Shown: positions 1 to 15,281, numbered from the stretch's first letter. The stretch: DNA of 32,000 nucleotides from an uncultured Anaerolinea sp. (GCA_964528275.1 CAZGSB010000001.1:123901-155900); one strand, 5' to 3'. The notes: generated by a model from the letters alone, not told the origin. Numbers and translations are program-made.

Positions 1-3000
1 AGCGGAGATCAGATCTGGGTGGCGAGTGGAACGTACTATCCCGATGATGGCGCGAGCCAGACGAATAACGCCCTTACCAGCACATTTACGCTCACGGACG
101 GAGTGTCCATTTACGGCGGGTTCACGGTTGGGGACACCCTGTTGAGCCAGCGAGACTCCAACCCAGCCACAAACGGTACGGTTCTGAGCGGGGATATCGA
201 TCAGGTCGCCGGCACAGCCGGAAACGCCTACACCGTTGTTACCGTAAACGGTTTGTTGACTGACACCTATGTCTTGGACGGGTTCACCGTTTCCGGCGGG
301 AATCAAGTTTCCGGCAGCGGTGTCGGGGGCGGAATGTATATCCAGAACGCCAGCCCCACCCTGAGCAACCTGATTATCACTGCAAATAGCGCGAATGGGC
401 GCGGTGGCGGCGTGTTTATAATTTCAGTGTCTGCCGTGGAAGCCAGCTACAGCCGCCCAACTTTCACCGACGTGACGGTCAGCAATAATACCGCAGGTAT
501 CGGGGGAGGCATCTATGTGCAAAATGGAAGCCCGTCATTTACCCGTGTGACGTTTTCCGGCAATTCATCGACAGGCGGCGCGGGCGGAGGCTTGAACCTG
601 CAGACCCTTGGCGGACCCGGCGTAGATGAACCCAATCTTCCAACCTTGTTGGATGTGACGTTCACCAGCAATACTGCAGTCGGCGGTGGCGGCATGTTCA
701 ATAACAACAGCACCACCACCCTCAACCGCGTGACCTTCAACGGCAACTCTGCCACGCGACGAGGCGGCGGCATGTTGAACGAGTTCTCTGCCCCCACGCT
801 CACCAATGTGACGTTCAGCGGCAACACATCCACCGAAACTTCCGGGACGACAACCCCGTGGGGCGGCGGCGGCATCATGAACATCGGCGCCGACCCGGTC
901 TTGAACAACGTCACCTTCAACGGAAATAATAGCGTCAACGGCTCCGGCACGGCGGGCGGTGACGCCATGAAAAACGTGACGTTGACTGGAAATGCCAGCA
1001 CGCCGGTCATTGAGAACAGTATTTTATGGGGCGATGGCGGCACGAACGACGAAGTACTCAATGAAGGGACAAGTTCCGCCACCATCGAAGATAGTATCGT
1101 GCAAGGCGGATGCCCCGCGTTATCGACATGTACGAATGTTATCAATTCCAATCCCGTATTAAGCGCGTTGGCGAACAATGGCGGCAACACGCAGACCATG
1201 GCAATCAGTGTCACTGGCGCGGCAGACGATGCGGCGGACACCACCACCGCAGATTGTGCCGCCACCGACCAGCGCGGGACAGCGCGTCCCCAGGGCGTGG
1301 CGTGCGATATCGGAGCCTATGAGATCGGCGACACCAGCGACCCGACTTTGATCTCTTTCACCCGCTTCAACCCGCCGACCTCCCCCACCAATGCAGACAC
1401 CTTGATCTTCCGCGCGACCTTTGATGAGACCGTTATAAATGTCAGCGCCGGCGATTTCGTCGTCAACGGGACCACCACTGCAACGGTCACCCTGGTAACG
1501 CAAATCAGCGGCACCGTGTACGAAATCACCGTTTCCGGCGGCGACCTGGCTGGCTTCAACGGTACGGTTGGGCTTGACTTGAGCGGCTCGCAGGATATTA
1601 CCGACGCAGTCGGTAATGCGTTGCCCGCCGGCGAACCGGTAACCGATGAAACCTATGTGGTGGACAATACCGCCCCCACCGTCACCATCGGCGCGCCGAG
1701 TGTAGCCATCACCAATACGGGACCCGTTGACTTTGCCATCACAGTCACCGGTGCAAATACGATCAATCTCATTGCTGGTAACGTCTCACTCAACTCAACC
1801 GGCACGGCGACTGGCACCGTTTCGGTGACCAACGGCAACACAGCCAACCCGACTGTGACCATCAGCGGAATCACCGGGGATGGCACGATCGGCATCTCGA
1901 TTGCGGCTGGCATCGCCTCCGATACGGCGGGCAACACCAGTGCGGCGGCAGGACCCTCCACAACGTTCACCGTGGACAACACCGCCCCCACTGTCACTAT
2001 CGGCGCGCCCAGTGTTGCGGTCACCAACACGGGACCGGTTGACTTCGCGATCACGGTCGCCGGTGCAAACACAGTTAACCTGGTTGCCGGCAACGTAACT
2101 CTGAACACAACCGGCTCAGCAACCGGCACAGTGTCTGTCACCAACGGAAACACCGCCAACCCAACCGTCACCATCAGCGGCATCACCGGAAACGGAACGA
2201 TTGGCATCTCGATTGCGGCGGGCATTGCGTCGGATACAGCCGGTAACACCTCCGCCGCGGCAGGACCCTCCGCCACGTTCACGGTGGACAATACTGCACC
2301 TACCGTCACCATCGGCGCGCCAAGTGTTGCGCTCACTAACACGGGACCGGTAGACTTCGCGATCACGGTCGCCGGTGCAAACACAGTTAACCTGGCTGCC
2401 GGCAACGTAACGCTCAACACCACCGGCACGGCGACCGGGACGGTGTCTGTCACCAACGGCAACACAGCGACTCCGACCGTCACCATCAGCGGCATCACCG
2501 GAGACGGAACGATCGGCATCTCCATCGCGGCGGGTATTGCCTCGGACACAGCCGGGAACAGCAGCGCCGCGGCAGGACCGTCAGCCACCTTCACTGTAGA
2601 CAACACCGGTCCCACCGTCGCCATCGGCGCGCCAAGTGTCGCGCTCACCAATACGGGACCGGTGGATTTTGCGATTACAGTCACTGGCGCAAACACGATC
2701 AACCTCACTGCCGGCAATGTAACGCTCAACACCACCGGCACAGCGACCGGCACAGTTTCCGTGACGAATGGCAACACTGCCAATCCAACAGTCACCATCA
2801 GCGGCATCACCGGGGATGGCACGATCGGCATCTCCATTGCGGCTGGCATTGCCTCCGATACGGCAGGCAACACCAGCGCGGCGGCGGGACCCTCTACCAC
2901 CTTCACCGTGGACAACACCGCTCCCACGGTAAGTATTGGCGCGCCCAGCGTGGCGCTGACTAACACAGGACCCGTAAATTTTGCGATCACGGTTGCCGGT

Positions 3001-5451
3001 GCGAACACAATCAATCTCACCGCCGGCAATGTAACACTCAATACGACCGGCACGGCGACGGGTACCGTTTCCGTGACCAATGGCAACACCGCTAACCCAA
3101 CGGTCACCATATCCGCCATTACGGGTAACGGTACCATCGGCATCTCCATCGCGGCGGGCATCGCCTCCGACACCGCCGGCAACACCTCCGCAGCCGCGGG
3201 ACCCTCCGCCACCTTCACCGTCGATAACACCACCCCCACCGTCACCATCGGCGCGCCAAGCGTGGCAACTACCACCGCGGGACCGGTTGATTTCTCCATC
3301 ACAGTTGCTGGCGCGAACACGATCAATCTCACCGCTGGGGATGTCACACTCAACACCACCGGCACAGCGACGGGCACCATTTCTGTCACCAACGGAAACA
3401 CCGCCAACCCAACGGTCACCATCAGCGGCATCACCGGAGACGGCACGATCGGCATCTCCATTGCGGCGGGCATCGCCTCCGATACGGCGGGCAACACCAG
3501 TGCGGCGGCGGGACCCTCTGCCACCTTCACCGTGGATAACTCGGGTCCTGTAGTGACGATTGGTGCGCCAAGCACGGCAACCACGACGAGTGGACCAGTG
3601 AACTTCTCCATCACGATCACCGGCGGCACAACATTTAATCTACTCGCCGCGAACGTCACCCTCAACACCACCGGCACGGCGACAGGCACAGTGTCCATCA
3701 CGAACGGCAACACAGCCAACCCGACGGTGACCATCAGCGGAATCACCGGCAATGGCACGATCGGAATCTCCATTGCGGCTGGTGTCGCAGCGGATGGTTT
3801 GGGCAACCCCTCCGCTGCGGCAGGACCGTCCGCCACCTTCACCGTCGATAACACCACCCCCACCGTCACCATCGGCGCGCCCAGTGTGGTGCTCACTAGC
3901 ACGGGACCTGTGGACTTTGCAATCACGGTTGCCGGTGCGAACACGATCAACCTCACTGCGGGCAACGTCACCCTCAATACCACCGGCACTGCGACGGGTA
4001 CCGTTTCTGTGACCAACGGCAACACCGCCAACCCGACGGTGACCATCAGCGGAATCACCGGCAATGGCACGATCGGCATCTCCATTGCGGCTGGCATTGC
4101 CTCCGATACGGCGGGTAACACCAGCGCGGCGGCGGGACCGTCTGCCACCTTCACCGTGGATAACACTGCCCCCACGGTCGCCATCGGCGCGCCCAGCGTC
4201 ACCGTCACAACGGCGGGACCGGTGGACTTCCCCATCACCATTTCCGGCGCGACAACCTTCAACCTCACTGCCGGCGATATCACACTGAACACCACTGGCA
4301 CAGCGACAGGGACAGTAGCCGTAACCAACGGCAATACCGCCACGCCCACGGTCACCATATCCGCTATTACGGGTAACGGAACCATCGGCATCTCCATCGC
4401 CGCCGGCGTCGCCGCAGATGGGAGTGGAAACACCAGCCCAGCCGCGGGACCGTCAACAACGTTCATCGTGGACAACTCGGGACCCACCGTCACCGCTTCG
4501 GTACCGGCGAACACCGCCACCGTAACCGGTCCTACCCAACTAACCGTGACATACAATGAAGATGTTAAGAACGATGGGTCGGCAGGCGCGGCGAACAATG
4601 TGGTCAACTACCTGCTGGTGGAAGCCGGCGTAAATACAACCTTTGATACAGTTTCATGTTTGGGCGGCGTGGTCGCCGACGATACGGTCATCACCGTCAA
4701 CACCGCCGCGTACACGAATAACGGCGGAAGCGGTCCGTTCGTCGCCACCCTGGATATCAACGGTGCGATCGCCCTCCCCGTGGGAACCTACCAACTGTAC
4801 GTGTGCGGAACCACCTCCATCGAGAATTTGGTGGACCTTGAACTGAACGATGGCTTGGCTGACACGATCATCCAATTCACCGTGATCGCGGGTCCGGGCA
4901 GCGGAGGCGGAGGCACTACCCTACGCGCAAGCGCCGTACCCGCCACCGGCTTCGCACAGGGATTCGTCACCACCCTGCCAGCCCAACCCGCCGAAAAAAT
5001 GTACACCGCCACCAGCCTGTGGATCGAGATTCCGCGCCTCGGGGTGAAGATGGATATTGTGGGCGTGCCTCAAACCAAGGACGGCTGGGATGTTTCGTGG
5101 CTTGGGCGCAACGCCGGCTGGTTGAATGGTTCGGCATTCCCCACCTGGAACGGCAACTCCGTGATCACCGGTCACGTCTGGACGGAAGCCAACAAACCCG
5201 GTCCGTTCAACAAACTGAAAGACTTGCAATACGGCGACCAGATCAAGATTCACGCATTTGGTCAGGTGTTCATCTACGAGATCCGCGATTCAGCCCTGAT
5301 CTCCTCCAGCGATACGAAGTCAATGATGAAGCATGAGGAAAAGACCTGGCTGACCCTGGTCACCTGCGAAGGGTTCAACTCGAAGACCGGCGAATACCTC
5401 TACCGCCGCATGATCCGCGCCGTTCTGGTCAGCGTCACAGCCGACAGATAA
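1..5451 (+). CDS. Giant secreted surface/adhesin-like protein, 5'-truncated by the window edge. Contains a parallel beta-helix (PbH1 / choice-of-anchor-Q-like) region, about 11 Ig-like domains, a Gly linker, a VPATG motif and a C-terminal sortase domain
   Basis: Frame 1 is open from nt 1; the track ORF 19..5451 starts at an internal GTG. GGGxxxxN...NVTFxGN beta-helix repeats are present. DQRGTARPQGVACDIGAYE lies at 1267-1323. Nine 104-aa repeats occupy 1660-4467. Sortase-like ITGH, TLVTC and YRRMIRA motifs lie near the C-terminus. Stop codon at 5449-5451. Confidence 0.85.
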   Translation, partial: SGDQIWVASGTYYPDDGASQTNNALTSTFTLTDGVSIYGGFTVGDTLLSQRDSNPATNGTVLSGDIDQVAGTAGNAYTVVTVNGLLTDTYVLDGFTVSGGNQVSGSGVGGGMYIQNASPTLSNLIITANSANGRGGGVFIISVSAVEASYSRPTFTDVTVSNNTAGIGGGIYVQNGSPSFTRVTFSGNSSTGGAGGGLNLQTLGGPGVDEPNLPTLLDVTFTSNTAVGGGGMFNNNSTTTLNRVTFNGNSATRRGGGMLNEFSAPTLTNVTFSGNTSTETSGTTTPWGGGGIMNIGADPVLNNVTFNGNNSVNGSGTAGGDAMKNVTLTGNASTPVIENSILWGDGGTNDEVLNEGTSSATIEDSIVQGGCPALSTCTNVINSNPVLSALANNGGNTQTMAISVTGAADDAADTTTADCAATDQRGTARPQGVACDIGAYEIGDTSDPTLISFTRFNPPTSPTNADTLIFRATFDETVINVSAGDFVVNGTTTATVTLVTQISGTVYEITVSGGDLAGFNGTVGLDLSGSQDITDAVGNALPAGEPVTDETYVVDNTAPTVTIGAPSVAITNTGPVDFAITVTGANTINLIAGNVSLNSTGTATGTVSVTNGNTANPTVTISGITGDGTIGISIAAGIASDTAGNTSAAAGPSTTFTVDNTAPTVTIGAPSVAVTNTGPVDFAITVAGANTVNLVAGNVTLNTTGSATGTVSVTNGNTANPTVTISGITGNGTIGISIAAGIASDTAGNTSAAAGPSATFTVDNTAPTVTIGAPSVALTNTGPVDFAITVAGANTVNLAAGNVTLNTTGTATGTVSVTNGNTATPTVTISGITGDGTIGISIAAGIASDTAGNSSAAAGPSATFTVDNTGPTVAIGAPSVALTNTGPVDFAITVTGANTINLTAGNVTLNTTGTATGTVSVTNGNTANPTVTISGITGDGTIGISIAAGIASDTAGNTSAAAGPSTTFTVDNTAPTVSIGAPSVALTNTGPVNFAITVAGANTINLTAGNVTLNTTGTATGTVSVTNGNTANPTVTISAITGNGTIGISIAAGIASDTAGNTSAAAGPSATFTVDNTTPTVTIGAPSVATTTAGPVDFSITVAGANTINLTAGDVTLNTTGTATGTISVTNGNTANPTVTISGITGDGTIGISIAAGIASDTAGNTSAAAGPSATFTVDNSGPVVTIGAPSTATTTSGPVNFSITITGGTTFNLLAANVTLNTTGTATGTVSITNGNTANPTVTISGITGNGTIGISIAAGVAADGLGNPSAAAGPSATFTVDNTTPTVTIGAPSVVLTSTGPVDFAITVAGANTINLTAGNVTLNTTGTATGTVSVTNGNTANPTVTISGITGNGTIGISIAAGIASDTAGNTSAAAGPSATFTVDNTAPTVAIGAPSVTVTTAGPVDFPITISGATTFNLTAGDITLNTTGTATGTVAVTNGNTATPTVTISAITGNGTIGISIAAGVAADGSGNTSPAAGPSTTFIVDNSGPTVTASVPANTATVTGPTQLTVTYNEDVKNDGSAGAANNVVNYLLVEAGVNTTFDTVSCLGGVVADDTVITVNTAAYTNNGGSGPFVATLDINGAIALPVGTYQLYVCGTTSIENLVDLELNDGLADTIIQFTVIAGPGSGGGGTTLRASAVPATGFAQGFVTTLPAQPAEKMYTATSLWIEIPRLGVKMDIVGVPQTKDGWDVSWLGRNAGWLNGSAFPTWNGNSVITGHVWTEANKPGPFNKLKDLQYGDQIKIHAFGQVFIYEIRDSALISSSDTKSMMKHEEKTWLTLVTCEGFNSKTGEYLYRRMIRAVLVSVTADR
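1660..4467 (+). repeat. Nine in-frame tandem 312-bp units, each encoding a 104-aa Ig-like domain (VDNTAPTVTIGAPSVAxTNTGPVDFAITV...AAAGPSATFT)
   Basis: Unit starts were read directly at 1660, 1972, 2284, 2596, 2908, 3220, 3532, 3844 and 4156, an exact 312-nt period. A divergent tenth domain follows from 4468. Confidence 0.95.
5017..5448 (+). other. Sortase catalytic domain, part of the 1..5451 CDS
   Basis: LWIEIPRLGVKMDIVGVP (beta1/2-like). His in NSVITGH (codon 5173-5175). Cys in LTLVTCEG (TLxTC signature, codon 5365-5367). Arg in YLYRRMIRAV. Spacing parallels SrtA-type sortases. Confidence 0.8.
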
Positions 5452-5465
5452 CGAACATTCACTGT

Positions 5466-5501
5466 AACGCCTTCCCGTTGGTTTTCCATCGGGAAGGCGT
5501 T
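5466..5501 (+). terminator. Stem-loop downstream of the giant gene, with a 12-bp perfect stem
   Basis: AACGCCTTCCCG (5466-5477) pairs with CGGGAAGGCGTT (5490-5501), 12-nt loop, 15 nt after the stop. No clear T-run follows. Confidence 0.45.
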
Positions 5502-5551
5502 GTGATTCCTGAGCGTGTCCGCTGAATCATCCGCGCTTCCACCTCCCAACT

Positions 5552-5590
5552 GAAAATAAAACAGACACCGGCGTAAACCCGGTGTCTGTT
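5552..5590 (-). terminator. Intrinsic terminator for the birA / small-ORF transcript
   Basis: ACAGACACCGG (5561-5571) pairs with CCGGTGTCTGT (5579-5589). On the minus strand it is followed by TTTATTTT (plus 5553-5560). Confidence 0.65.
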
Positions 5591-5615
5591 CCTGTAATAT
5601 CACTCCAGCGCCAAT

Positions 5616-5861
5616 TTAAAACACAGCCATCTTACCCAGGATCAACATCGCCAGGGTGCCGAGCAGGCATACAACGAAGAACAACATGAAGGAAAGGAAG
5701 AAGCGTTGCGCTCCGTTCATCCCAAGCATACGCGACTCGCGTTTGCGAGGAGCGGCAATGACCGCATCCATGGGTCTGGATGCCGGCTCCTTATAGAGGT
5801 CGTTCGAGTCCTCTTCGTAAAAAGGGGAGGAAGATGCGGATTCGCGCAGGTTATCGAACAT
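5616..5861 (-). CDS. Small tail-anchored membrane protein (hypothetical, about 81 aa)
   Basis: ATG at 5861-5859 lies 2 nt after the birA stop (5866-5864). The track start 5867 is a GTG overlapping that stop. C-terminal hydrophobic segment FFLSFMLFFVVCLLGTLAMLILG. A terminator follows. Confidence 0.5.
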   Translation of the reverse strand: MFDNLRESASSSPFYEEDSNDLYKEPASRPMDAVIAAPRKRESRMLGMNGAQRFFLSFMLFFVVCLLGTLAMLILGKMAVF

Positions 5862-5863
5862 GG

Positions 5864-6661
5864 TCACCTATTGTTGAGTATACCCGTGAATGGACGCAGG
5901 CTCACATCGCCAAATTGCACTGTCACGGATTTGTTATTGTCATCACGCAATCTCAAACTGCCATCCGAAAGAATCCCCTCCAGCCTGCCGACTACGGTCT
6001 TGCCAGCCCCCATTTCCACACGCACCTGCCTCCCGCGAAAGGCAAGCGAAGCGCCCCATTTATTCATCAGTTCATCGGTGCCCAGAGCGGGACGCAGGGA
6101 AAGGAAAGCGGCGAGTATCTCGTGGAGAACTTCCTCGCGCGCCACCTCGCGTTCCAACGCAGATTCCAGGCTGGTACCGGGGAAACGCAAAATATCTGTA
6201 TCGGGAACGGCACGTTTGAGAACATTCAGCCCGATCCCCACCACGACAAATTTGAGTTCCTCCCCTGCCCATGCCAGTTCCAGCAGGATCCCGGCCACCT
6301 TGCGTTGATTGAGCAGGATATCGTTGGGCCACTTGATCTGCGGGTTCAAGCCAAATTTTTGGAGAGGTTCGCAAATGGAGAGGGCGGCAAGCCCGACCAA
6401 CCGGGAAAGAAACGGTTTCTCTGCAGGGCTGGGACGCAGGATCATGCTAAATGCGAGGGCGGTTCCGGCGGGGGTGAACCAGGGACGGTCCATCCTGCCG
6501 CGCCCCATGGTTTGCTCGTCCGAAATAATCACCGATAGATCGCGTGCGCCTTTGTTTGCCCAGGCGAGCGCTTCATCGTTTGTGGAACCGATCGAATTGA
6601 AATACTGGATATCCCCAAGTGCCAGGTCAGAAAGCAGGGTTTGAAGCGAGGATTGGTTCAT
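5864..6661 (-). CDS. birA: Biotin--[acetyl-CoA-carboxylase] ligase, group I (no HTH domain)
   Basis: GRGRMDRPW signature, KWPNDILL, C-terminal SH3-like tail. Start placed at ATG 6661 (MNQSSLQ...), 7 nt after the upstream M23 stop. The track extension to 6808 overlaps that gene. Confidence 0.85.
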   Translation of the reverse strand: MNQSSLQTLLSDLALGDIQYFNSIGSTNDEALAWANKGARDLSVIISDEQTMGRGRMDRPWFTPAGTALAFSMILRPSPAEKPFLSRLVGLAALSICEPLQKFGLNPQIKWPNDILLNQRKVAGILLELAWAGEELKFVVVGIGLNVLKRAVPDTDILRFPGTSLESALEREVAREEVLHEILAAFLSLRPALGTDELMNKWGASLAFRGRQVRVEMGAGKTVVGRLEGILSDGSLRLRDDNNKSVTVQFGDVSLRPFTGILNNR

Positions 6662-6668
6662 CGCGCGG

Positions 6669-7733
6669 CTAGGGAAGAACGAACCACGGGTTGATGGATC
6701 CGCCACCCTGCCGTACCTCAAAATGGAGATGCGCGCCCTGCGAATTCCCGGTATTACCGGAAGCGCCGATCCATTGCCCGGCGCTAACGCTCTGGCATGC
6801 GCCGACACCGATCACGCTCAAGTGGGCGTAAATGGTCGAAAAGCCGTTCCCATGATCGATCTGGATCACATTGCCGTAGCCGTAGTTATAACCGCCTTGC
6901 GCCATGGTGACCACGCCGCTGTCCGCCGCGTACACGGGAGCGCCCTCCCCTGCCGCAATATCGATCCCGAGATGCCCGCTCCAGTAATCGTTTCCGGATA
7001 AAGAGTGCGAATCTGCGGGCCAGACAAACCCGCCGCTCCCCACCGCTCCGCCGGGGCATGCGCTCTGATTCGTGGGGGAACTTCCCGTGCCGGTGCTGCC
7101 AGTGCCCACGGTTGGCACAAGCCATTGAACGAACTCACGCGAACCACCGGGCACCATCACCCACGATCCCGAAGTGATCTTTGGGTCGGTCAGGTCGATG
7201 TCGTTGCCGGGGTAGTTGATGATACTGTCGACGGCCGCATTAAATTCGAAGGCGACCGAATCGAGGGTGTCGTTTTCTTTCCACTGATAATAGATCCCGT
7301 CTGTGGGGGGAATGCTCAAAACCTGCCCCGGCTTCAAACTGTGCGGGTCATCTTGCAACGTATCGTAGTTTGCCCAGAGCACGGTTTCGGCGGTAAGGTT
7401 GTACGAGGAGGAAATGGCGAAGATCGAGTCCCCGCGTTGCACACGATAGTCCACCGGTTCATAGCGCGGCTTATCTGCCGGGATATTCGTTTTCAATTGG
7501 ATGACCCGCGAAATGGACAGGAACGGATCGGACCCCAGTAAGGCTGGCATCGCCACCTCCACCGGTTCCTCCTCCTCCGCGACGATCGGTTGCGGCGCGA
7601 GCGCCTGCGCGGGCTGGTTAGAATTATTCCACGAGAGGGCGCCGAAGATCATTCCGCCCCCAAGCGCGATGGTTACGACCCAACTGATGACCGAAAATTT
7701 ATTCTTGAGTAGGAATTTAAACGCGTTCGACAT
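6669..7733 (-). CDS. Membrane-anchored LysM-domain M23 metallopeptidase
   Basis: N-terminal TM (VISWVVTIALGGGMIFGAL). LysM-like YRVQRGDSIFAISSSY and YQWKENDTLDSVAFEF. M23 motifs HLGIDIAA and GNTGNSQGAHLHFEV. The track start 7739 is TTG; the ATG is at 7733. Confidence 0.85.
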   Translation of the reverse strand: MSNAFKFLLKNKFSVISWVVTIALGGGMIFGALSWNNSNQPAQALAPQPIVAEEEEPVEVAMPALLGSDPFLSISRVIQLKTNIPADKPRYEPVDYRVQRGDSIFAISSSYNLTAETVLWANYDTLQDDPHSLKPGQVLSIPPTDGIYYQWKENDTLDSVAFEFNAAVDSIINYPGNDIDLTDPKITSGSWVMVPGGSREFVQWLVPTVGTGSTGTGSSPTNQSACPGGAVGSGGFVWPADSHSLSGNDYWSGHLGIDIAAGEGAPVYAADSGVVTMAQGGYNYGYGNVIQIDHGNGFSTIYAHLSVIGVGACQSVSAGQWIGASGNTGNSQGAHLHFEVRQGGGSINPWFVLP

Positions 7734-7739
7734 TTCCAA

Positions 7740-7768
7740 ATTATAGGGTGATCAGGAATCCCTGCCGA
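7740..7768 (-). promoter_or_regulatory. Putative promoter for a leaderless LysM-M23 mRNA: TCGGCA-17-TATAAT, with the -10 box 6 nt from the ATG
   Basis: Minus-strand TATAAT = plus 7740-7745. Minus-strand TCGGCA = plus 7763-7768, inside the rho 3' end. No SD lies between the -10 box and ATG 7733. Confidence 0.4.
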
Positions 7769-9029
7769 GGTTCTCGAGGAATTCCTGGTTGTTGCGCGCC
7801 CTGTCCAGGCGGGTGACGATGGCTTCGGTCGCCACCGAATGATCCATGCCGGCGCCCTGTGGTTGCGGGGAGGTCATTTGAATGTACATCCGCCGCATGA
7901 GCCAGACGCGTTGCAAGAGGTCGGGTCCCAGCAACAGGTCTTCGCGCCTCGTGGAGGAGCGTTCGATATCCACGGCGGGGAAGATGCGCCGTTCCTGCAA
8001 TTTGCGCGAGAGCAATAGTTCCATATTTCCGGTGCCTTTGAACTCTTCGTAGACCACATCGTCGAGGCGGGAGCCGGTATCCACGAGGCACGTGGCGATG
8101 ATGGTGAGCGAGCCGCCTTCTTCGATGTTGCGCGCCGCGCCGAAGAACCGCTTGGGCGGGTACAACGCGGAAGGATCCATGCCGCCGGAGAGGGTGCGTC
8201 CGCTGGGGTTGACGACCAGATTGTAAGCGCGGGCGAGGCGGGTGATCGAGTCCATCAAGATTACCACGTGGCGTCCGATCTCCACGAGGCGCTTAGCGCG
8301 CTCTAAGGCGAGTTCCGCCGTACGCACGTGGGAAGTGACCGGCTCGTCGAACGTCGACGCAACCACCTCGGCATCCACCGAGCGGTCCATGTCGGTTACT
8401 TCTTCGGGGCGTTCACCGATCAAGGCGACCAGCAAATGCACATCCGGGTATTTGGTTGAGATCGAATTCGCGATCTGTTTGAGGATGGTTGTTTTTCCCG
8501 CCTTGGGTGGGGAAACGATCAGCCCGCGCTGACCCCGCCCGATGGGGGCGATCAGGTTGATCAGGCGCGGAGCGAGGGTATCGTGGTCGGTTTCGAGATC
8601 AAATCGTTTGTCGGGGAAGATCGGGGTGAGGTTTTCAAACACTGTTCTTCGAGAGGCTTCTTCGGGGTCGAGCCCGTTAATGGATTCCACCTTGAGGAGT
8701 CCGAAATGCCGCTCACTTTCACGCGGCGGGCGTACCTGCCCAATGACGAGGTCGCCTGCCCTGAGATCGTGCCTGCGCAATTGCGCTTGTGACACGTACA
8801 CATCCTGGTCGCTGATGCGGTAGTTCGTGGCTCGCAGAAAGCCGATGCCTTCGCTCATGATCTCCAGGATGCCGCCTCGCAGTTCGATGCCCTCCTTCTG
8901 CGCTTCCGCCTCGCGGATCATCATGGCAAGGGTCTCTTTTTTCAGGCGGTTGGAGTTGGGAATATTCAGCGATTTTCCCAAGGCGCGCAATTTGGAGAGG
9001 GGTTCATTTTCAAGTTCAAGTATCTTCAT
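7752..9029 (-). CDS. rho: Transcription termination factor Rho
   Basis: N-terminal Rho_N ([15 protein letters not shown]), CSD-like RNA-binding region, Walker [19 protein letters not shown], typical about 420-aa length. Confidence 0.97.
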
Positions 9030-9237
9030 GGTTCATTTCTCTGGGTGGGATTTTGTGGAAAAGGAAACGCCGCCAGCGCGCCAAGGGAATGGCGCGGGTG
9101 GGGAGTCTCCCTTAATTTTTTCGTAAGTGTGGGTTTACTATCAAGTGGTTGCCGGGCGTGCCACCCATGCAGGTTGAATAACCCGACATTTAGATGACAC
9201 AATGTGTATGCTGTGAAATAACTGGGGAAGTGTTGCG

Positions 9238-9266
9238 ATTATAGCACGGTACACCGGGCAAGGCAA
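9238..9266 (-). promoter_or_regulatory. Putative rho promoter TTGCCT-17-TATAAT, giving a leader of about 200 nt
   Basis: Minus-strand TATAAT = plus 9238-9243. Minus-strand TTGCCT = plus 9261-9266. The spacer is exactly 17 nt. It lies just downstream of the stop of the preceding gene (9276). Confidence 0.45.
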
Positions 9267-9275
9267 GCGTTAATG

Positions 9276-9731
9276 TTACTTTTCGAGACGGACTTTCAGG
9301 TTTGTGAGCACTGCCCGCTGGCTTCGATTGGCTTCGTTGTACACAAAACTTTCGATCAACCGGTTAACCTTTTCGAATTCGACCCTTTGGACCAGATGGG
9401 TTTTGCCGTTTTCCACCTCATGGAATTCATAATGGAAAGCGAGTCGGATCCCCAGTTTGCCATAAAGGCGAATGGTCAACTCGCGTTTGGGGCGGGTAAG
9501 ATGGATAACTAGGTAGATGCGGCTCCGAAAAATGGGCAACCCCGCCCAGCGGTAGGTCTCCACGGTGTAAAACGGACGCAGGAGGATGCCCGTCGCATCG
9601 GTATGCTCCTTCATCACGTCGAGGGTGGTCAACCGCGGGCGAAGCCCGATCATGTTGAGCGGTTCAGCCAGCTGGTCGTACACCTCATTCCGCGGGCGGT
9701 CGATGAAGATGTTCAGCTCGAACGAATGCAT
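9276..9731 (-). CDS. SRPBCC (START/polyketide-cyclase-like) family protein
   Basis: 150-aa size. The N-terminus FELNIFIDRPRNEVYDQLAEP is typical of SRPBCC proteins. Assigned by pattern only. Confidence 0.55.
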   Translation of the reverse strand: MHSFELNIFIDRPRNEVYDQLAEPLNMIGLRPRLTTLDVMKEHTDATGILLRPFYTVETYRWAGLPIFRSRIYLVIHLTRPKRELTIRLYGKLGIRLAFHYEFHEVENGKTHLVQRVEFEKVNRLIESFVYNEANRSQRAVLTNLKVRLEK

Positions 9732-9737
9732 GCCCCA

Positions 9738-9765
9738 ATTTTAACCATGATTGGTGGATTGACAA
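9738..9765 (-). promoter_or_regulatory. Putative promoter TTGTCA-16-TAAAAT, with the -10 box 6 nt upstream of ATG 9731 (leaderless)
   Basis: Minus-strand TAAAAT = plus 9738-9743. Minus-strand TTGTCA = plus 9760-9765. No SD is present. Confidence 0.5.
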
Positions 9766-9790
9766 GTGCGCGATATTGCAATGTTATAAT
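9759..9790 (+). promoter_or_regulatory. Putative lgt promoter: TTGACA and an extended -10 TGTTATAAT
   Basis: TTGACA at 9759-9764. TGnTATAAT at 9782-9790. The spacer is 20 nt (long), so the extended -10 may be the main determinant. SD GAGG lies at 9809-9812 before ATG 9818. Confidence 0.45.
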
Positions 9791-9817
9791 CGTCCAAAAT
9801 GAATTTCCGAGGTATGG

Positions 9818-10903
9818 ATGATTAACCCAATAATTTACTCGTTTGGCAATTTTTCGCTCCACTGGTACGGTGTGATCGTGATGGCTGGCGTGATCGTCGG
9901 CTCACTGATCGCCGAACGCGAATTGATCCGTCGCGGTGGGAATGGGGATACGATCTGGGATGTACTGGTGGGCTGGACCGATATCGGACGGAAGATGAAA
10001 TTTCCCTTCGGGACGTTCCAGTTCGGCTTGCCGCTGGGCGTCCTTCCGGTCGGCATCATCGGCGCGCGATTGTGGTACGTGATGAATGCAACACTCGGCG
10101 GAAACAGGCTATACGTCGAAAACCCATCCGAGATCCTGAGAGTTTGGAATGGCGGACTACACATCTTTGGCGGTTTTCTCTTCGGCGCCATTTCAATGCT
10201 CCTGCTGTTGAAAAAGTACAAGGTCGATGTGTGGATGGTGTTGGATTCGATCGGTCCTGCCCTGCTCATTGGTCAGGGCATTGGGCGGTTGGGGAATTTC
10301 ATCAACCAGGAGTTGTACGGTCCGCCCACAACCCAGCCGTGGGGGTTAAAAATTTCGCCGGAATATTCCTATCAGGTCCCGTTGGAAATGCAGGGAAAAT
10401 CCAGCGCTGAAGTATTGAGTTACCTCGAGACCACGCGCTTCCATCCGACATTTGCCTATGAGATGCTCTGGAACTTCGCCGCGGCAGGACTCCTGTTATG
10501 GCTGTCTCGCCGGTATGAAAAGGACCTCAAGCCTGGAACCCTGTTCGCCGGCTGGTTGCTCCTCGCCGGCATCGGGCGCACCTGGATCGAGTTGTTTCGC
10601 CCCGACCAGCCAAAGATCGGCGAAACGGAGATCAGTTACTCCATGGTGATCGCCGCGTTGATGGCAATCGGCGGCGCGATCGTGCTGATGGCGCGTTATA
10701 AAGCGATCAACTTGAAAGTTGCAGAACATTGGGAAGAGGAATATCAATCGGCGGGTGGGGCTGTTCCGGTGATGACGCCAGCCGCCCCTGTAAAAAAATC
10801 TGCCGGCGTGAAACCGACAGGCAAACCCGCCAGGAAAACCAAAGCAAAAACAAAAACAGCGGCGAGCAAACCCAACAAGCCCGCTTCGCGCTCCGCGAAG
10901 TAA
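9818..10903 (+). CDS. lgt: Prolipoprotein diacylglyceryl transferase with a Lys/Ala/Pro-rich C-terminal tail
   Basis: HWYGVIVMAGVIVG, GRLGNFINQELYG signature, multiple TM segments. Basic tail KKSAGVKPTGKPARKTKAKTKTAASKPNKP. Confidence 0.9.
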   Translation: MINPIIYSFGNFSLHWYGVIVMAGVIVGSLIAERELIRRGGNGDTIWDVLVGWTDIGRKMKFPFGTFQFGLPLGVLPVGIIGARLWYVMNATLGGNRLYVENPSEILRVWNGGLHIFGGFLFGAISMLLLLKKYKVDVWMVLDSIGPALLIGQGIGRLGNFINQELYGPPTTQPWGLKISPEYSYQVPLEMQGKSSAEVLSYLETTRFHPTFAYEMLWNFAAAGLLLWLSRRYEKDLKPGTLFAGWLLLAGIGRTWIELFRPDQPKIGETEISYSMVIAALMAIGGAIVLMARYKAINLKVAEHWEEEYQSAGGAVPVMTPAAPVKKSAGVKPTGKPARKTKAKTKTAASKPNKPASRSAK

Positions 10904-10908
10904 ACGAT

Positions 10909-10941
10909 CAGGTCAGGCAAAATTGCCTGACCTGTGTTTTT
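10909..10941 (+). terminator. Intrinsic terminator between convergent lgt and the sulfotransferase gene
   Basis: CAGGTCAGGCA (10909-10919) pairs with TGCCTGACCTG (10924-10934), 4-nt loop, then TGTTTTT. Confidence 0.75.
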
Positions 10942-12139
10942 ATTCGACCGAGTTGACGGTGACGAACTGTGAACGCGCGCTGACGGTTTCCTCTTCGCGT
11001 TTGTCGAAGCCGAACCGTTCGAAGATGTCGGCGTACATTTCGACGATCCTTTCGCGGGTAAACCCCATTTCTTCGTAGGAATAGGTATGGTCACTGCGAT
11101 GGGCAAGCGTATCTTTGACGGCTTCGTCCACAATCTTGTCCAAGCCCGGTTTATCGGGGTAGCCGAACTGCTCGTAGAAACCGCGGATCACCTGCTCAGG
11201 GCGTTGGATCAAATCGTCGTAGTTGAGGATCAAATGCCTCGGGGCGGGATGCGAGTCGAGATATTCCAAAGGATGGCGATACCAGTGTTGTGTCAAGTCA
11301 GTGATCTCATCCAGGTATTGATATTTTTCGAATCCGCCTGTGAACACGCCGCGCGAGTAGTTGATCCACGAGATGGTGGAGGGAAGCATGTCGAGCGGGT
11401 TGCGGGCGAGGTAAATGATGCGGGCGTCGGGGAAGATTTCGGCGAGGGTTTCGATCTTGGCGCTGAAAGCAGGCGCTTTTGCCACGTAATATTTTTTACC
11501 CGTCGCGTATATGTGCCGTTGCAACATGGATTTGTAAAATGCCATGATCCTGCGCTTGTGTTCCGGCGCGAGTGCCTCGTCGAAATGCTGGTAATTCGGG
11601 TACTCATCCATGAACGGGAAGAGGAACGTGACCCAGAACGAATCCCAAGCGTGCATGAGGATGTTCTCGTCCTCTTCGGGTTGGAAGAACGATATGGGAT
11701 GGATTTTGATCTGCCCGAGGGTGCGGCGGTCGAAGGCATAGAGGGCGCGGTGCAAATGCCCGCCAAGTTTTTTATCGATGCGCGAAACGAATTGTGTAAA
11801 TTTCTTTTGAACTACAGACGGGGTCAGGTAAATATCCCACGTAGTGAGGCTGGTAAATGTGGTGGTGTCGCGGGAGAGCAGGCGGTGGAGGAAGGTGGAT
11901 CCGCTTCTGAGATTGCCCAGAATAAAGAGCGGTTTCTCGACAATTTGGGTTTTGTGCCCGGGGTAGAAAATGTCATCGAGCCAGAAGCAGAACCAATGAA
12001 AGAGCGAGCCCAGGGGCCAGACCAGGTAAAACATGGTCAGGAAGATGATCCGTTTTCGGTTGAGGGGGGCGGGGGTGTCTTTCGATGCGAAGAATGATCG
12101 GTAGAACGTGCGCCAGAACAGGCGGAGGTTGTAGTGCAT
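10940..12139 (-). CDS. Sulfotransferase family protein with an N-terminal hydrophobic segment
   Basis: 5'-PSB-like LGNLRSGSTFLHRLLS and 3'-PB-like IIYLARNPLDMLPS motifs. Hydrophobic IIFLTMFYLVWPLGSLFHWFCFW near the N-terminus. Confidence 0.7.
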   Translation of the reverse strand: MHYNLRLFWRTFYRSFFASKDTPAPLNRKRIIFLTMFYLVWPLGSLFHWFCFWLDDIFYPGHKTQIVEKPLFILGNLRSGSTFLHRLLSRDTTTFTSLTTWDIYLTPSVVQKKFTQFVSRIDKKLGGHLHRALYAFDRRTLGQIKIHPISFFQPEEDENILMHAWDSFWVTFLFPFMDEYPNYQHFDEALAPEHKRRIMAFYKSMLQRHIYATGKKYYVAKAPAFSAKIETLAEIFPDARIIYLARNPLDMLPSTISWINYSRGVFTGGFEKYQYLDEITDLTQHWYRHPLEYLDSHPAPRHLILNYDDLIQRPEQVIRGFYEQFGYPDKPGLDKIVDEAVKDTLAHRSDHTYSYEEMGFTRERIVEMYADIFERFGFDKREEETVSARSQFVTVNSVE

Positions 12140-14066: not shown

Positions 14067-14094
14067 AGTATAGCACAGATGTTCGATACGTCAA
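14067..14094 (-). promoter_or_regulatory. Putative recA promoter TTGACG-16-TATACT. The spacer contains a Cheo-box-like CGAACATCTGTGCT (14072-14085)
   Basis: Minus-strand TATACT = plus 14067-14072. Minus-strand TTGACG = plus 14089-14094. The left half-site CGAAC is perfect. The right half GTGCT matches GTTCG at 3 of 5 positions. Confidence 0.45.
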
Positions 14095-15281
14095 GGTATG
14101 GGGGTGATGGTCACAGGCAGAAAATCCAATGTCGGCACGGGCGGCGGGGTGAGTTGGAATCCGTCTTTATCGGTGAACGTGAAGTAGGTCACCTGCCCCG
14201 GGAAAATTTCCACGAAGAATTGAACGTCCTTCTCCAAATAATTGATCAACACCTTATAAATCCCCGCCGGCAGGTCGCTGAGCACCAAATTCTCCTGATA
14301 GTACGGATCGCCATTGACCGCGCCTTCGGCGTACGTCAATACTTTACGCAAGGGGACTTCGGACGGTAACGGTCGCACCTCGACGGGGTACTGGTTCAGC
14401 AACTCGTCTTTTTCGCCGCTGACGCGCCCCACCAGCACGCCCCAGCCCTGCGGAGGAGCCATCCATAGTTCGGGGTTGAACGTGTTGTAAAAAGTGTTTT
14501 TCCCCAACCGGATTTCAAAATGCAAATGCGGACCGGTCGTCGCGCCGGTGTCGCCGACCAGACCGATCACATCCCCGGTCTCCACGCGCTGACCTTCCAC
14601 CGCGAGGATCGCGCTCATGTGGGCGTAAATGGTAAACAGCGATTGTTCCTTGTAACCGAAATCATGGCGGATGACGACCGCCTGCCCGTACGGATCAGAT
14701 TCGTTGCCCGGCACCTCGGTGTACAAACCCCACCCCGCGGAGACGACCGTACCGGAACCCGCGGCGAGGATGGGCGCGCCTTCGGCGGCATCGATATCCA
14801 CACCGGTGTGCACGATGTTAGGCGCGAAGAACACGCCGCCGTAGCGGTATTCCGCCAGGGGCCAGTTGACGTTATCCGCGGCGATGGGGCGGGCGAAGTA
14901 AAAATGATCGTAGGGCGAAACAGCCCAGGGAACCGGATAAAGAGGCGGACGCCATCCCGAAACCGGTTCCGCTCCGGGGGTCGGCAGGACGAACCGGAAC
15001 GGCTCAATCGTCGGGTTCGGTGTCGCATCCGTTTCATCGGCAGGCTGGAGCGCCGTCCCACCGGCGATGACCGCTGTGCTGGTGGGATTCGCTGCGAGGT
15101 TCGATGGCGCGCAGGAAACTAATAATAAAACCAACAACAAAATTATGTCATTGCGAGGAGGAGCGAAGCGACGACGAAGCAATCTCCATCTTGGTAGGGA
15201 GATTGTGTCACCACGGCGCCACGGCGACGCTTGAACCGTCTTTCGGGCTTTCTCGCAATGACGAAACAAAAAATTCTTCAT
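14091..15281 (-). CDS. M23 family metallopeptidase (probable lipoprotein) with a C-terminal beta-sandwich domain
   Basis: [17 protein letters not shown] and [16 protein letters not shown]. Lipobox LLLVSC. ATG 15281 overlaps the upstream stop (ATGA). An alternative in-frame TTG at 15182 would give [24 protein letters not shown]. Confidence 0.85.
15147..15262. repeat. Nested inverted-repeat (REP/MITE-like) element lying inside the annotated 5' end of the M23 gene
   Basis: Outer arms GTCATTGCGAG (15147-15157) and CTCGCAATGAC (15252-15262), 11/11. Inner arms CAATCTCC (15180-15187) and GGAGATTG (15198-15205), 8/8. Confidence 0.6.

Follow-up and report, generated by a model that had tools for sequence, protein, structure and literature searches.

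Introduction

What does a sortase do when it is built into the protein that it might be expected to process? In the established scheme the enzyme is anchored in the membrane and acts on substrates that are held there by a transmembrane (TM) helix. The 32,000-nucleotide stretch of DNA analysed here (hereafter the window, meaning the whole stretch; uncultured Anaerolinea sp., GCA_964528275.1 CAZGSB010000001.1:123901-155900) begins with a gene of another design, which encodes on one polypeptide a large passenger, an LPXTG-like motif and a sortase catalytic domain, in that order. Anaerolineae are abundant in sludge, sediments and the subsurface, and their envelope is almost unstudied.

We find that the fusion is genuine and that it represents a large family, in which motif, connector and enzyme stand together at the C-terminus of mutually unrelated passengers. 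We propose, with a probability of roughly one half, that the last ~170 residues are a self-contained C-terminal sorting module that would cleave its own Thr-Gly bond and hand the passenger to an acceptor in the envelope. In our best reading this module stands in for two things, the classical signal (LPXTG motif followed by TM helix and basic tail) and a sortase anchored on its own in the membrane.

Results

A complete sortase domain closes one open reading frame

The window protein is encoded in a single open reading frame (ORF) that runs from the first base of the window up to its stop codon without interruption (Table 1). Pfam profile PF04203 recognised the C-terminal 136 residues with E=8.3e-22 (77.7 bits; cutoff 26.6), TIGR01076, the NCBIfam model for sortases in general, scored 56.7 bits against 39.35, and solved sortases in the PDB matched the domain with a best E of 7e-11. 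An AlphaFold2 model of the module, built on an alignment of 78 sequences, had a mean predicted local distance difference test score (pLDDT) of 88 and a predicted template modelling score of 0.83; when used as a query in Foldseek it returned sortase structures of classes C, D and A with E values of ~1e-11, and the fold that it predicts is the eight-stranded beta-barrel of sortases. Aligned by hhalign to Staphylococcus aureus SrtA, H1725, C1789 and R1802 fell on H120, C184 and R197, and the spacings of 64 residues from His to Cys and 13 from Cys to Arg are identical in the two proteins. All three residues are invariant in both family alignments (A1 and A2; 78 and 63 sequences). By hidden Markov model, catalytic triad and predicted fold the domain belongs to the sortase superfamily, and it is predicted to be active as a transpeptidase on a substrate of the LPXTG type.

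Assignment to a class is another matter. None of the curated NCBIfam class models reached its cutoff with the window domain (class C, NF033745, 52.9 bits against 160; class F, 51.2 against 166; class D, 47.7 against 165; SrtD, 46.6 against 140; class E, 38.9 against 160; GN, 37.4 against 158), and the class A and class B models gave no match at all. Other family members scored 47.8-55.3 bits with the class C model, also below the cutoff of 160.

The membrane anchor expected of sortases is absent from the module. There is no TM-like segment in the last 200 residues of the window protein, where the highest 19-residue Kyte-Doolittle mean is 0.86, nor in the module of any of the 60 homologues checked, where it is at most 1.64. 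VPATG occupies residues 1646-1650, which puts it 171 residues from the C-terminus, compared with ~35 in a classical signal.

These results bear out what the preliminary description had read from this one protein, namely a complete sortase domain with its hallmarks in canonical order and spacing, an LPXTG-like motif ~25 residues before it on the same ORF, no hydrophobic helix after the motif and no TM segment in the enzyme. The positions it gave for the start of GPGSGGGG (4891-4914), VPATG (4936-4950), the His codon (5173-5175) and the Cys codon (5365-5367) are all exact. It had named the lack of a sortase match, or misaligned catalytic residues, as grounds for dropping the idea; the match is significant and the His, Cys and Arg align. 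The classification that it proposed ends at the superfamily.

The fusion is continuous

Two genes can look like one after a frameshift, a false join in assembly or a wrong gene call, and public gene calls seem to point that way, for they often show a separate sortase; nine database proteins are 169-residue 'sortases' that start exactly at LPxTGF. We rejected this separate gene as a gene-caller error. At one such locus (L001) the true ORF has 588 codons and encodes a signal peptide, an ice-binding-like domain, a Thr/Pro linker, LPETGF and the sortase, and the annotation there calls spurious antisense genes over the passenger. The fusion is unbroken in the window, in 90 ORFs from 79 genomes and in L004, which was assembled independently from an uncultured Anaerolinea sp. 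L004 is collinear with window positions 3493-11227 at 88.8% nucleotide identity, and its junction of passenger, motif and sortase is continuous and the same as in the window. Between positions 4900 and 5020, where the preliminary description had pictured a possible frameshift or join, there is neither a stop nor a frameshift. The artefact explanation is refuted.

The modules of the window and of L004 differ by 35 synonymous and 9 nonsynonymous codons, indicating that the module is under purifying selection.

Long antisense ORFs lie over the GC-rich, repetitive passenger in the window (1653-4607, minus strand, 984 residues), in L001 (273-1529) and in L065 (~5033-9182). Because public gene callers choose antisense ORFs over the passenger, annotation of the family is systematically fragmented. 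The only public names for its members are 'sortase', 'class F sortase' and 'LPXTG-site transpeptidase family protein'. With names this vague and gene calls split in this manner, counts of sortases in Chloroflexota are distorted, and so are counts of surface proteins.

The motif is a fixed part of the module

VPATGF in the window protein is one instance of a motif that recurs throughout the family. Among 147 family representatives, 145 have [LIVMA]Px[TS]G[FY] 141-145 residues N-terminal of the catalytic Cys (first position L in 116, I in 19 and V in 8; T before the Gly in 141 and S in 4; F after it in 144 and Y in 1), as do 84 of the 90 locus ORFs at 141-146 residues. A search based on the module returned 590 relatives, and every one long enough to cover the region has [LIVM]PxTGF ~140 residues before the Cys. 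Occurrence of the motif at this fixed spacing is far beyond chance. Its Pro and Thr are invariant in alignments A1 and A2, its Gly and Phe are present in at least 90% of sequences, and the 22-residue connector that follows is conserved about as well as the enzyme core. The linker N-terminal of the motif varies in length and composition, being Gly-rich in the window protein (GPGSGGGGTTLRASA) and Thr/Pro-rich or absent elsewhere.

Predicted order begins at the motif. In the window model residues 7-17 have pLDDT values below 50 and residues 21-40 values of 85-92; in the model of a second family member (P0074) residues 54-110 are below 50 and confidence climbs at LPDTGF (residues 119-124). A profile alignment to the Ebp class C sortase of Enterococcus faecalis (PDB 24rr) places the DPF lid of that enzyme three residues past the TG of the motif, and in Foldseek SrtC-1 of A. 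oris, which bears a lid, aligned with 179 of the 196 residues of the model. Order from the motif onwards, fixed spacing and the lid alignment together argue that the motif is a fixed, ordered part of the module at the position where class C enzymes cover their groove. The alignment and the models suggest that it may occupy the substrate groove itself. Moreover, the fixed spacing and the conserved connector argue against recognition purely in trans.

Several variants were seen. P0029 carries a tandem duplication of a LPSTGFRHGEVTQLPKQPAA segment (residues 36-80) that places two motifs before one sortase, with the triad intact, and in L074 the motif reads NPATGF, again with an intact triad. A Lys in the connector (QPAxKAY) was considered as a nucleophile and rejected, as it is not conserved across the family.

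One module, many passengers

A profile search of 1.84 billion cluster representatives, with E<=1e-30 as the family threshold, found that ~1475 clusters (at 50% identity) carry the module. In the best 150 of these it stands at the extreme C-terminus in every case; the proteins reach 2735 residues, with a median of 808, and a few are truncated fragments. Across the family the module makes up the final ~170 residues of secreted proteins that range from 270 to more than 2800 residues. A scan of GTDB with one genome per species gave at least 581 copies. The best 80 of these all come from Anaerolineales (Chloroflexota), the cultured Longilinea arvoryzae KOME-1 included. In the 90 ORFs from these loci no domain ever follows the sortase, the Cys lies 25-32 residues before the stop, and ORF length ranges from 228 to more than 2850 residues. 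Most complete ORFs start with a Sec signal peptide, recognisable by a basic n-region, a hydrophobic core and an AxA site; the N-terminus of the window protein lies outside the window, and its homologues suggest that it has one too. The preliminary description was right about the fusion and treated it as one protein, whereas it represents a large family; its word 'adhesin' for the passenger is still presumptive.

Passengers are mutually unrelated and include ice-binding-like, DUF285/PARCEL, cadherin, Flg_new, PMP-repeat and choice-of-anchor Q types. The choice-of-anchor Q domain of the window protein sits in a Gly-rich, beta-helix-like N-terminal region, and its 104-residue stalk repeats gave only a weak Pfam match, to DUF7356. 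Its last passenger domain is of a type often found directly N-terminal of the sortase module in homologues; a search with that domain for homologues bearing other C-terminal anchors returned a single match.

Copies are multiple in several genomes, tandem pairs included. Two fused genes, as tandem or nearby paralogues, were found at L023, L015, L034, L052, L061, L077, L068 and L013; the pair at L061 is nearly identical, and both copies have the variant PPKTGF.

Such pairs would suit intermolecular cross-linking, in which the sortase domain of one molecule, or the molecule's own acyl-enzyme, would move the passenger to a Lys or to the N-terminal amine of another surface protein and build a covalent polymer, sheath or matrix, as in class C pili. 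Class C pilus sortases are the closest matches in sequence and structure, and Anaerolineae are filamentous organisms, as a matter of general knowledge. We nevertheless regard cross-linking as unlikely. The unrelated passengers share no pilin-like Lys motif, the connector Lys varies, the mature N-termini left by signal peptide removal have no conserved Gly or Ala nucleophile, and the fixed spacing and ordered connector suggest docking in cis rather than free recognition in trans.

The nature of the passengers also bears on whether the module might only release them. Sortases hydrolyse the acyl-enzyme when a nucleophile is absent, as is established for SrtA, and the fused sortase could be a self-removing pro-domain (for example an aid to folding or export) that frees the passenger instead of attaching it. 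A fusion that is soluble and unanchored has no evident route to lipid II, and engineered self-cleaving sortase fusions reportedly operate by such release (PMC2901362). We think this rather improbable, because a transpeptidase would be an uneconomical means of mere cleavage and because the passenger families are typical of anchored surface proteins, the 'choice-of-anchor' domain among them.

Two database entries call for comment. P0116 is labelled 'Candidatus Bathyarchaeota archaeon' at NCBI, whereas every other named match is from Chloroflexota; it is probably a mis-binned contig and not an archaeal occurrence. In Longilinea arvoryzae KOME-1 (L030) a long Thr/Pro/Ala repeat region of the fused ORF that ends at ~8513 is preceded by an in-frame stop, and no in-frame signal peptide was seen for this ORF; the cause may be a frameshift or faulty assembly within the repeat.

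Genomic context and trans-acting activity

The window is ordinary chromosome, with genes for birA, an M23/LysM peptidase, rho, lgt, a sulfotransferase, recA, a second M23 peptidase, ABC-2 transporter components and others. No stand-alone sortase was found in it, nor within ~8 kb of the 79 loci, and all sortase matches in the ~1 Mb sampled belong to the fused family. There is likewise no conserved neighbour gene family beside the fused genes at these loci, pilin genes included; the only 'family' to recur (48 loci) consists of antisense ORFs of the fused genes.

The pattern [LIVM]PxTG[FY] occurs 89 times in the ~1 Mb of loci. Of these occurrences 86 lie in the module, 2 look like chance and 1 is a textbook sorting signal. 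This last belongs to a protein of 180 residues (L008:12269-12811, minus strand) with an N-terminal TM segment, a Gln/Thr/Ala-rich region and LPNTGF followed by a hydrophobic helix and RRLR; it is encoded ~3.7 kb downstream of a fused protein of more than 2775 residues that resembles that of the window. The LPXTG-anchor model TIGR01167 recognised it with 18.5 against a cutoff of 15.9, serving as a positive control, and gave no match for the window protein or for three other fused proteins tested. A classical signal with LPxTGF indicates that this is the lineage's real sortase recognition form. The genome survey that the preliminary description had suggested thus turned up further copies of the fusion and a classical xPxTG protein, but no stand-alone sortases in the loci covered.

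Might the same activity that serves this classical substrate also cut the fused proteins? In that case a separate, conventional membrane sortase would cleave the motif, and the fused domain would have an unrelated or regulatory role. The classical substrate has the same LPxTGF form, and the survey covered loci rather than whole genomes. However, a substrate that lacks a TM helix and a basic tail would not be retained at the membrane, the motif is conserved jointly with the enzyme and at a fixed spacing from it, and the neighbourhoods of the 79 loci hold no stand-alone sortase. We consider this explanation very improbable.

Alternatively, the fused enzyme could itself be the one that acts on the classical substrate. 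Here LPxTGF would be an uncleaved pseudo-substrate lid that auto-inhibits a sortase working in trans on classical LPxTGF-TM proteins, and the passenger would be a tether or positioner in place of the membrane anchor. This would account for a motif at the class C lid position, and also for a lineage that has a classical LPNTGF substrate and, in the ~1 Mb sampled, no stand-alone sortase. Known lids, however, read DP[FWY] and are not perfect, cleavable sorting motifs. Near-invariance of the scissile Thr and Gly is hard to square with selection against self-cleavage, and argues against a lid that is never cleaved. Many unrelated and very large passengers, with several copies per genome, are not what one would expect of the tether of a housekeeping enzyme. 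We therefore judge the lid to be an unlikely role for the motif.

Features of the window are collected in Table 1. The M23 genes, one of them with a LysM domain, suggest a peptidoglycan wall. Taken with lgt, the two M23 genes would imply both such a wall and lipoprotein maturation, which bears on the possible sortase acceptor. Downstream of the fused gene the stronger of two hairpins lies between it and the convergent small-ORF and birA genes, and is probably a terminator for these minus-strand genes.

Table 1. Features of the fused gene and its surroundings, in window coordinates
Feature	Position	Strand	Remarks
Single ORF: passenger, LPxTGF and sortase	1..5451	+	Frame 1; 1816 codons and stop; 5' end cut by the window edge
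Choice-of-anchor Q domain, residues 384-442	1150..1326	+	NCBIfam NF041518, 67.5 bits against cutoff 25
Tandem repeat, 312 bp (104 residues) x 9.1 copies; immunoglobulin-like stalk of passenger	1660..4494	+	Tandem Repeats Finder, 79% matches
Last passenger domain (NYLLVEAG...YxLxVCGTTSIxxL...FTV)	4594..4893	+	Consensus of alignments A1 and A2
Flexible Gly-rich linker	4891..4935	+	Modelled as disordered (pLDDT <50, model residues 7-17)
VPATGF sorting-type motif	4936..4953	+	Predicted scissile bond Thr1649-Gly1650 (4945-4950)
Conserved connector (xxGxVTxLPxQPxxKxY...), motif to strand beta-1	4954..5022	+	Conservation in A1/A2; pLDDT 85-92; aligns with SrtA N-terminal linker and class C lid region
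Sortase catalytic domain, residues 1675-1810	5023..5430	+	Pfam PF04203, E=8e-22; AlphaFold2 pLDDT 88; Foldseek sortase matches
Catalytic His1725 (CAC) of VITGH	5173..5175	+	Invariant; on SrtA H120
Catalytic Cys1789 (TGC) of TLVTC	5365..5367	+	Invariant; on SrtA C184
Catalytic Arg1802 (CGC), first R in YRRMIRA	5404..5406	+	Invariant; on SrtA R197
Stop codon	5449..5451	+	Protein ends 27 residues past the Cys; no TM segment, no basic tail
Weak terminator-like hairpin 3' of the fused gene	5481..5498	+	
Perfect 14-bp-stem hairpin, then T-run	5558..5592	-	Stronger than the hairpin at 5481-5498
M23 peptidase genes, one with LysM domain	6669-7739 and 14091-15281	-	
lgt	9818-10903		

Discussion

The preliminary description had allowed three roles, namely self-cleavage with self-attachment, a pseudo-substrate lid, and cross-linking of neighbouring molecules in trans. 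In summary, the evidence argues for a motif that is built into a general sorting module and docked there, and it favours self-processing over a lid that stays uncleaved. The reading as a self-contained module rests on an intact enzyme, on a motif of the lineage's own type at a fixed distance and on an ordered, conserved connector; on the lack of a membrane anchor, the signal peptides of homologues, interchangeable passengers and the lack of a genomic partner; and on several copies per genome, purifying selection and a likely peptidoglycan wall.

How such a module would work can be set out in steps. The protein would be exported by the Sec pathway through its N-terminal signal peptide, seen in homologues and presumed for the window protein. 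Conservation, fixed spacing, model confidence and the lid alignment suggest that the connector would hold the LPxTGF of the same chain in the substrate groove, where class C sortases have their lid. Cys1789 would then attack the Thr1649-Gly1650 bond, yielding a thioacyl enzyme that carries the passenger on its Thr and a sortase fragment that starts with Gly-Phe. An amine of the envelope, most plausibly that of a peptidoglycan stem peptide or of lipid II, would resolve the intermediate, leaving the passenger covalently attached and releasing a sortase fragment that would be spent, or now active in trans. Each surface protein would bring its own, essentially single-use, sortase. Cleavage, action in cis as opposed to trans, and the acceptor are all steps that we infer. 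More tentatively, we suggest an 'autosortase' pathway in Anaerolineae, in which a single-turnover sortase with a pre-docked LPxTGF would cleave itself and ligate its passenger to the envelope without any membrane-bound sortase.

Several points weigh against this proposal. A soluble, secreted fusion of enzyme and substrate has no obvious way to stay near lipid II. Rare members that lack the Thr of the motif (IPAIGF in L075) still keep an intact enzyme and triad. Finally, the classical LPNTGF substrate at L008 means that some trans-acting sortase activity must exist, and it is possible that a separate housekeeping sortase processes the fused proteins, since the survey took in ~1 Mb of loci and not whole genomes.

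The module can be compared with several known systems. Classical sorting of the SrtA type uses the same fold, with His, Cys and Arg in register; its motif is likewise of the LPxTG type, with Thr and Gly where the scissile bond is expected, and its substrate is likewise exported by Sec. In the present family enzyme and motif lie on one polypeptide, the enzyme lacks a membrane anchor, the motif is followed by neither a TM helix nor a basic tail, and the TIGR01167 anchor model gives no match. Class C pilus sortases, the best matches in sequence and structure, have an N-terminal extension ~20-25 residues before strand beta-1 that covers the active site, and in the alignment LPxTGF comes within three residues of the DPF lid that the Ebp enzyme from E. 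faecalis carries. In the family described here, by contrast, LPxTGFxPG replaces the DP[FWY] lid, there is no C-terminal TM helix and there are no linked pilin genes.

Portable C-terminal self-processing has other precedents. Hedgehog and Hint proteins, and autotransporters, have a C-terminal domain that makes an ester or thioester at the passenger junction, passes the passenger to an acceptor and is then discarded. These are analogues in concept: neither the fold nor the chemistry is related, and we imply no homology. PEP-CTERM/exosortase systems, the C-terminal domains of the type IX secretion system and LPXTG tags also place a tag at the extreme C-terminus of choice-of-anchor Q, ice-binding-like and PARCEL passengers, with many paralogues per genome, but their enzyme is a separate membrane protein whereas here it is part of the tag.

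One further parallel is man-made. Engineered BISOP fusions, with sortase and LPXTG on one chain, reportedly self-cleave either intra- or intermolecularly (PMC2901362), so the chemistry is feasible for a fusion. These constructs have the order sortase-LPXTG-target and serve for tag removal by hydrolysis or glycine attack, whereas the present family is natural, has the order passenger-LPxTGF-sortase and is conserved across a bacterial order. The full-text literature searched held only engineered fusions and no natural one, though subscription-only papers outside that search (for example in-silico surveys of sortase architecture) may mention the present arrangement, for which NCBIfam release 20 offers no model. 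The family is apparently undescribed.

Looking forward, a module of ~170 residues that cleaves itself between the Thr and Gly of LPxTG and ligates its passenger would interest protein engineers; if the autosortase proposal is correct, it would be a natural, portable, self-ligating protein tag. The autosortase, if true, would also be a bacterial analogue of Hedgehog-type autoprocessing, and would amount to a new principle for displaying proteins on the surface in a phylum that is major but poorly studied. For sortase biology, a large natural family whose substrates each include the enzyme would be evidence that this chemistry can be run in a second way, and it would give a first view of how Anaerolineae decorate their surface.

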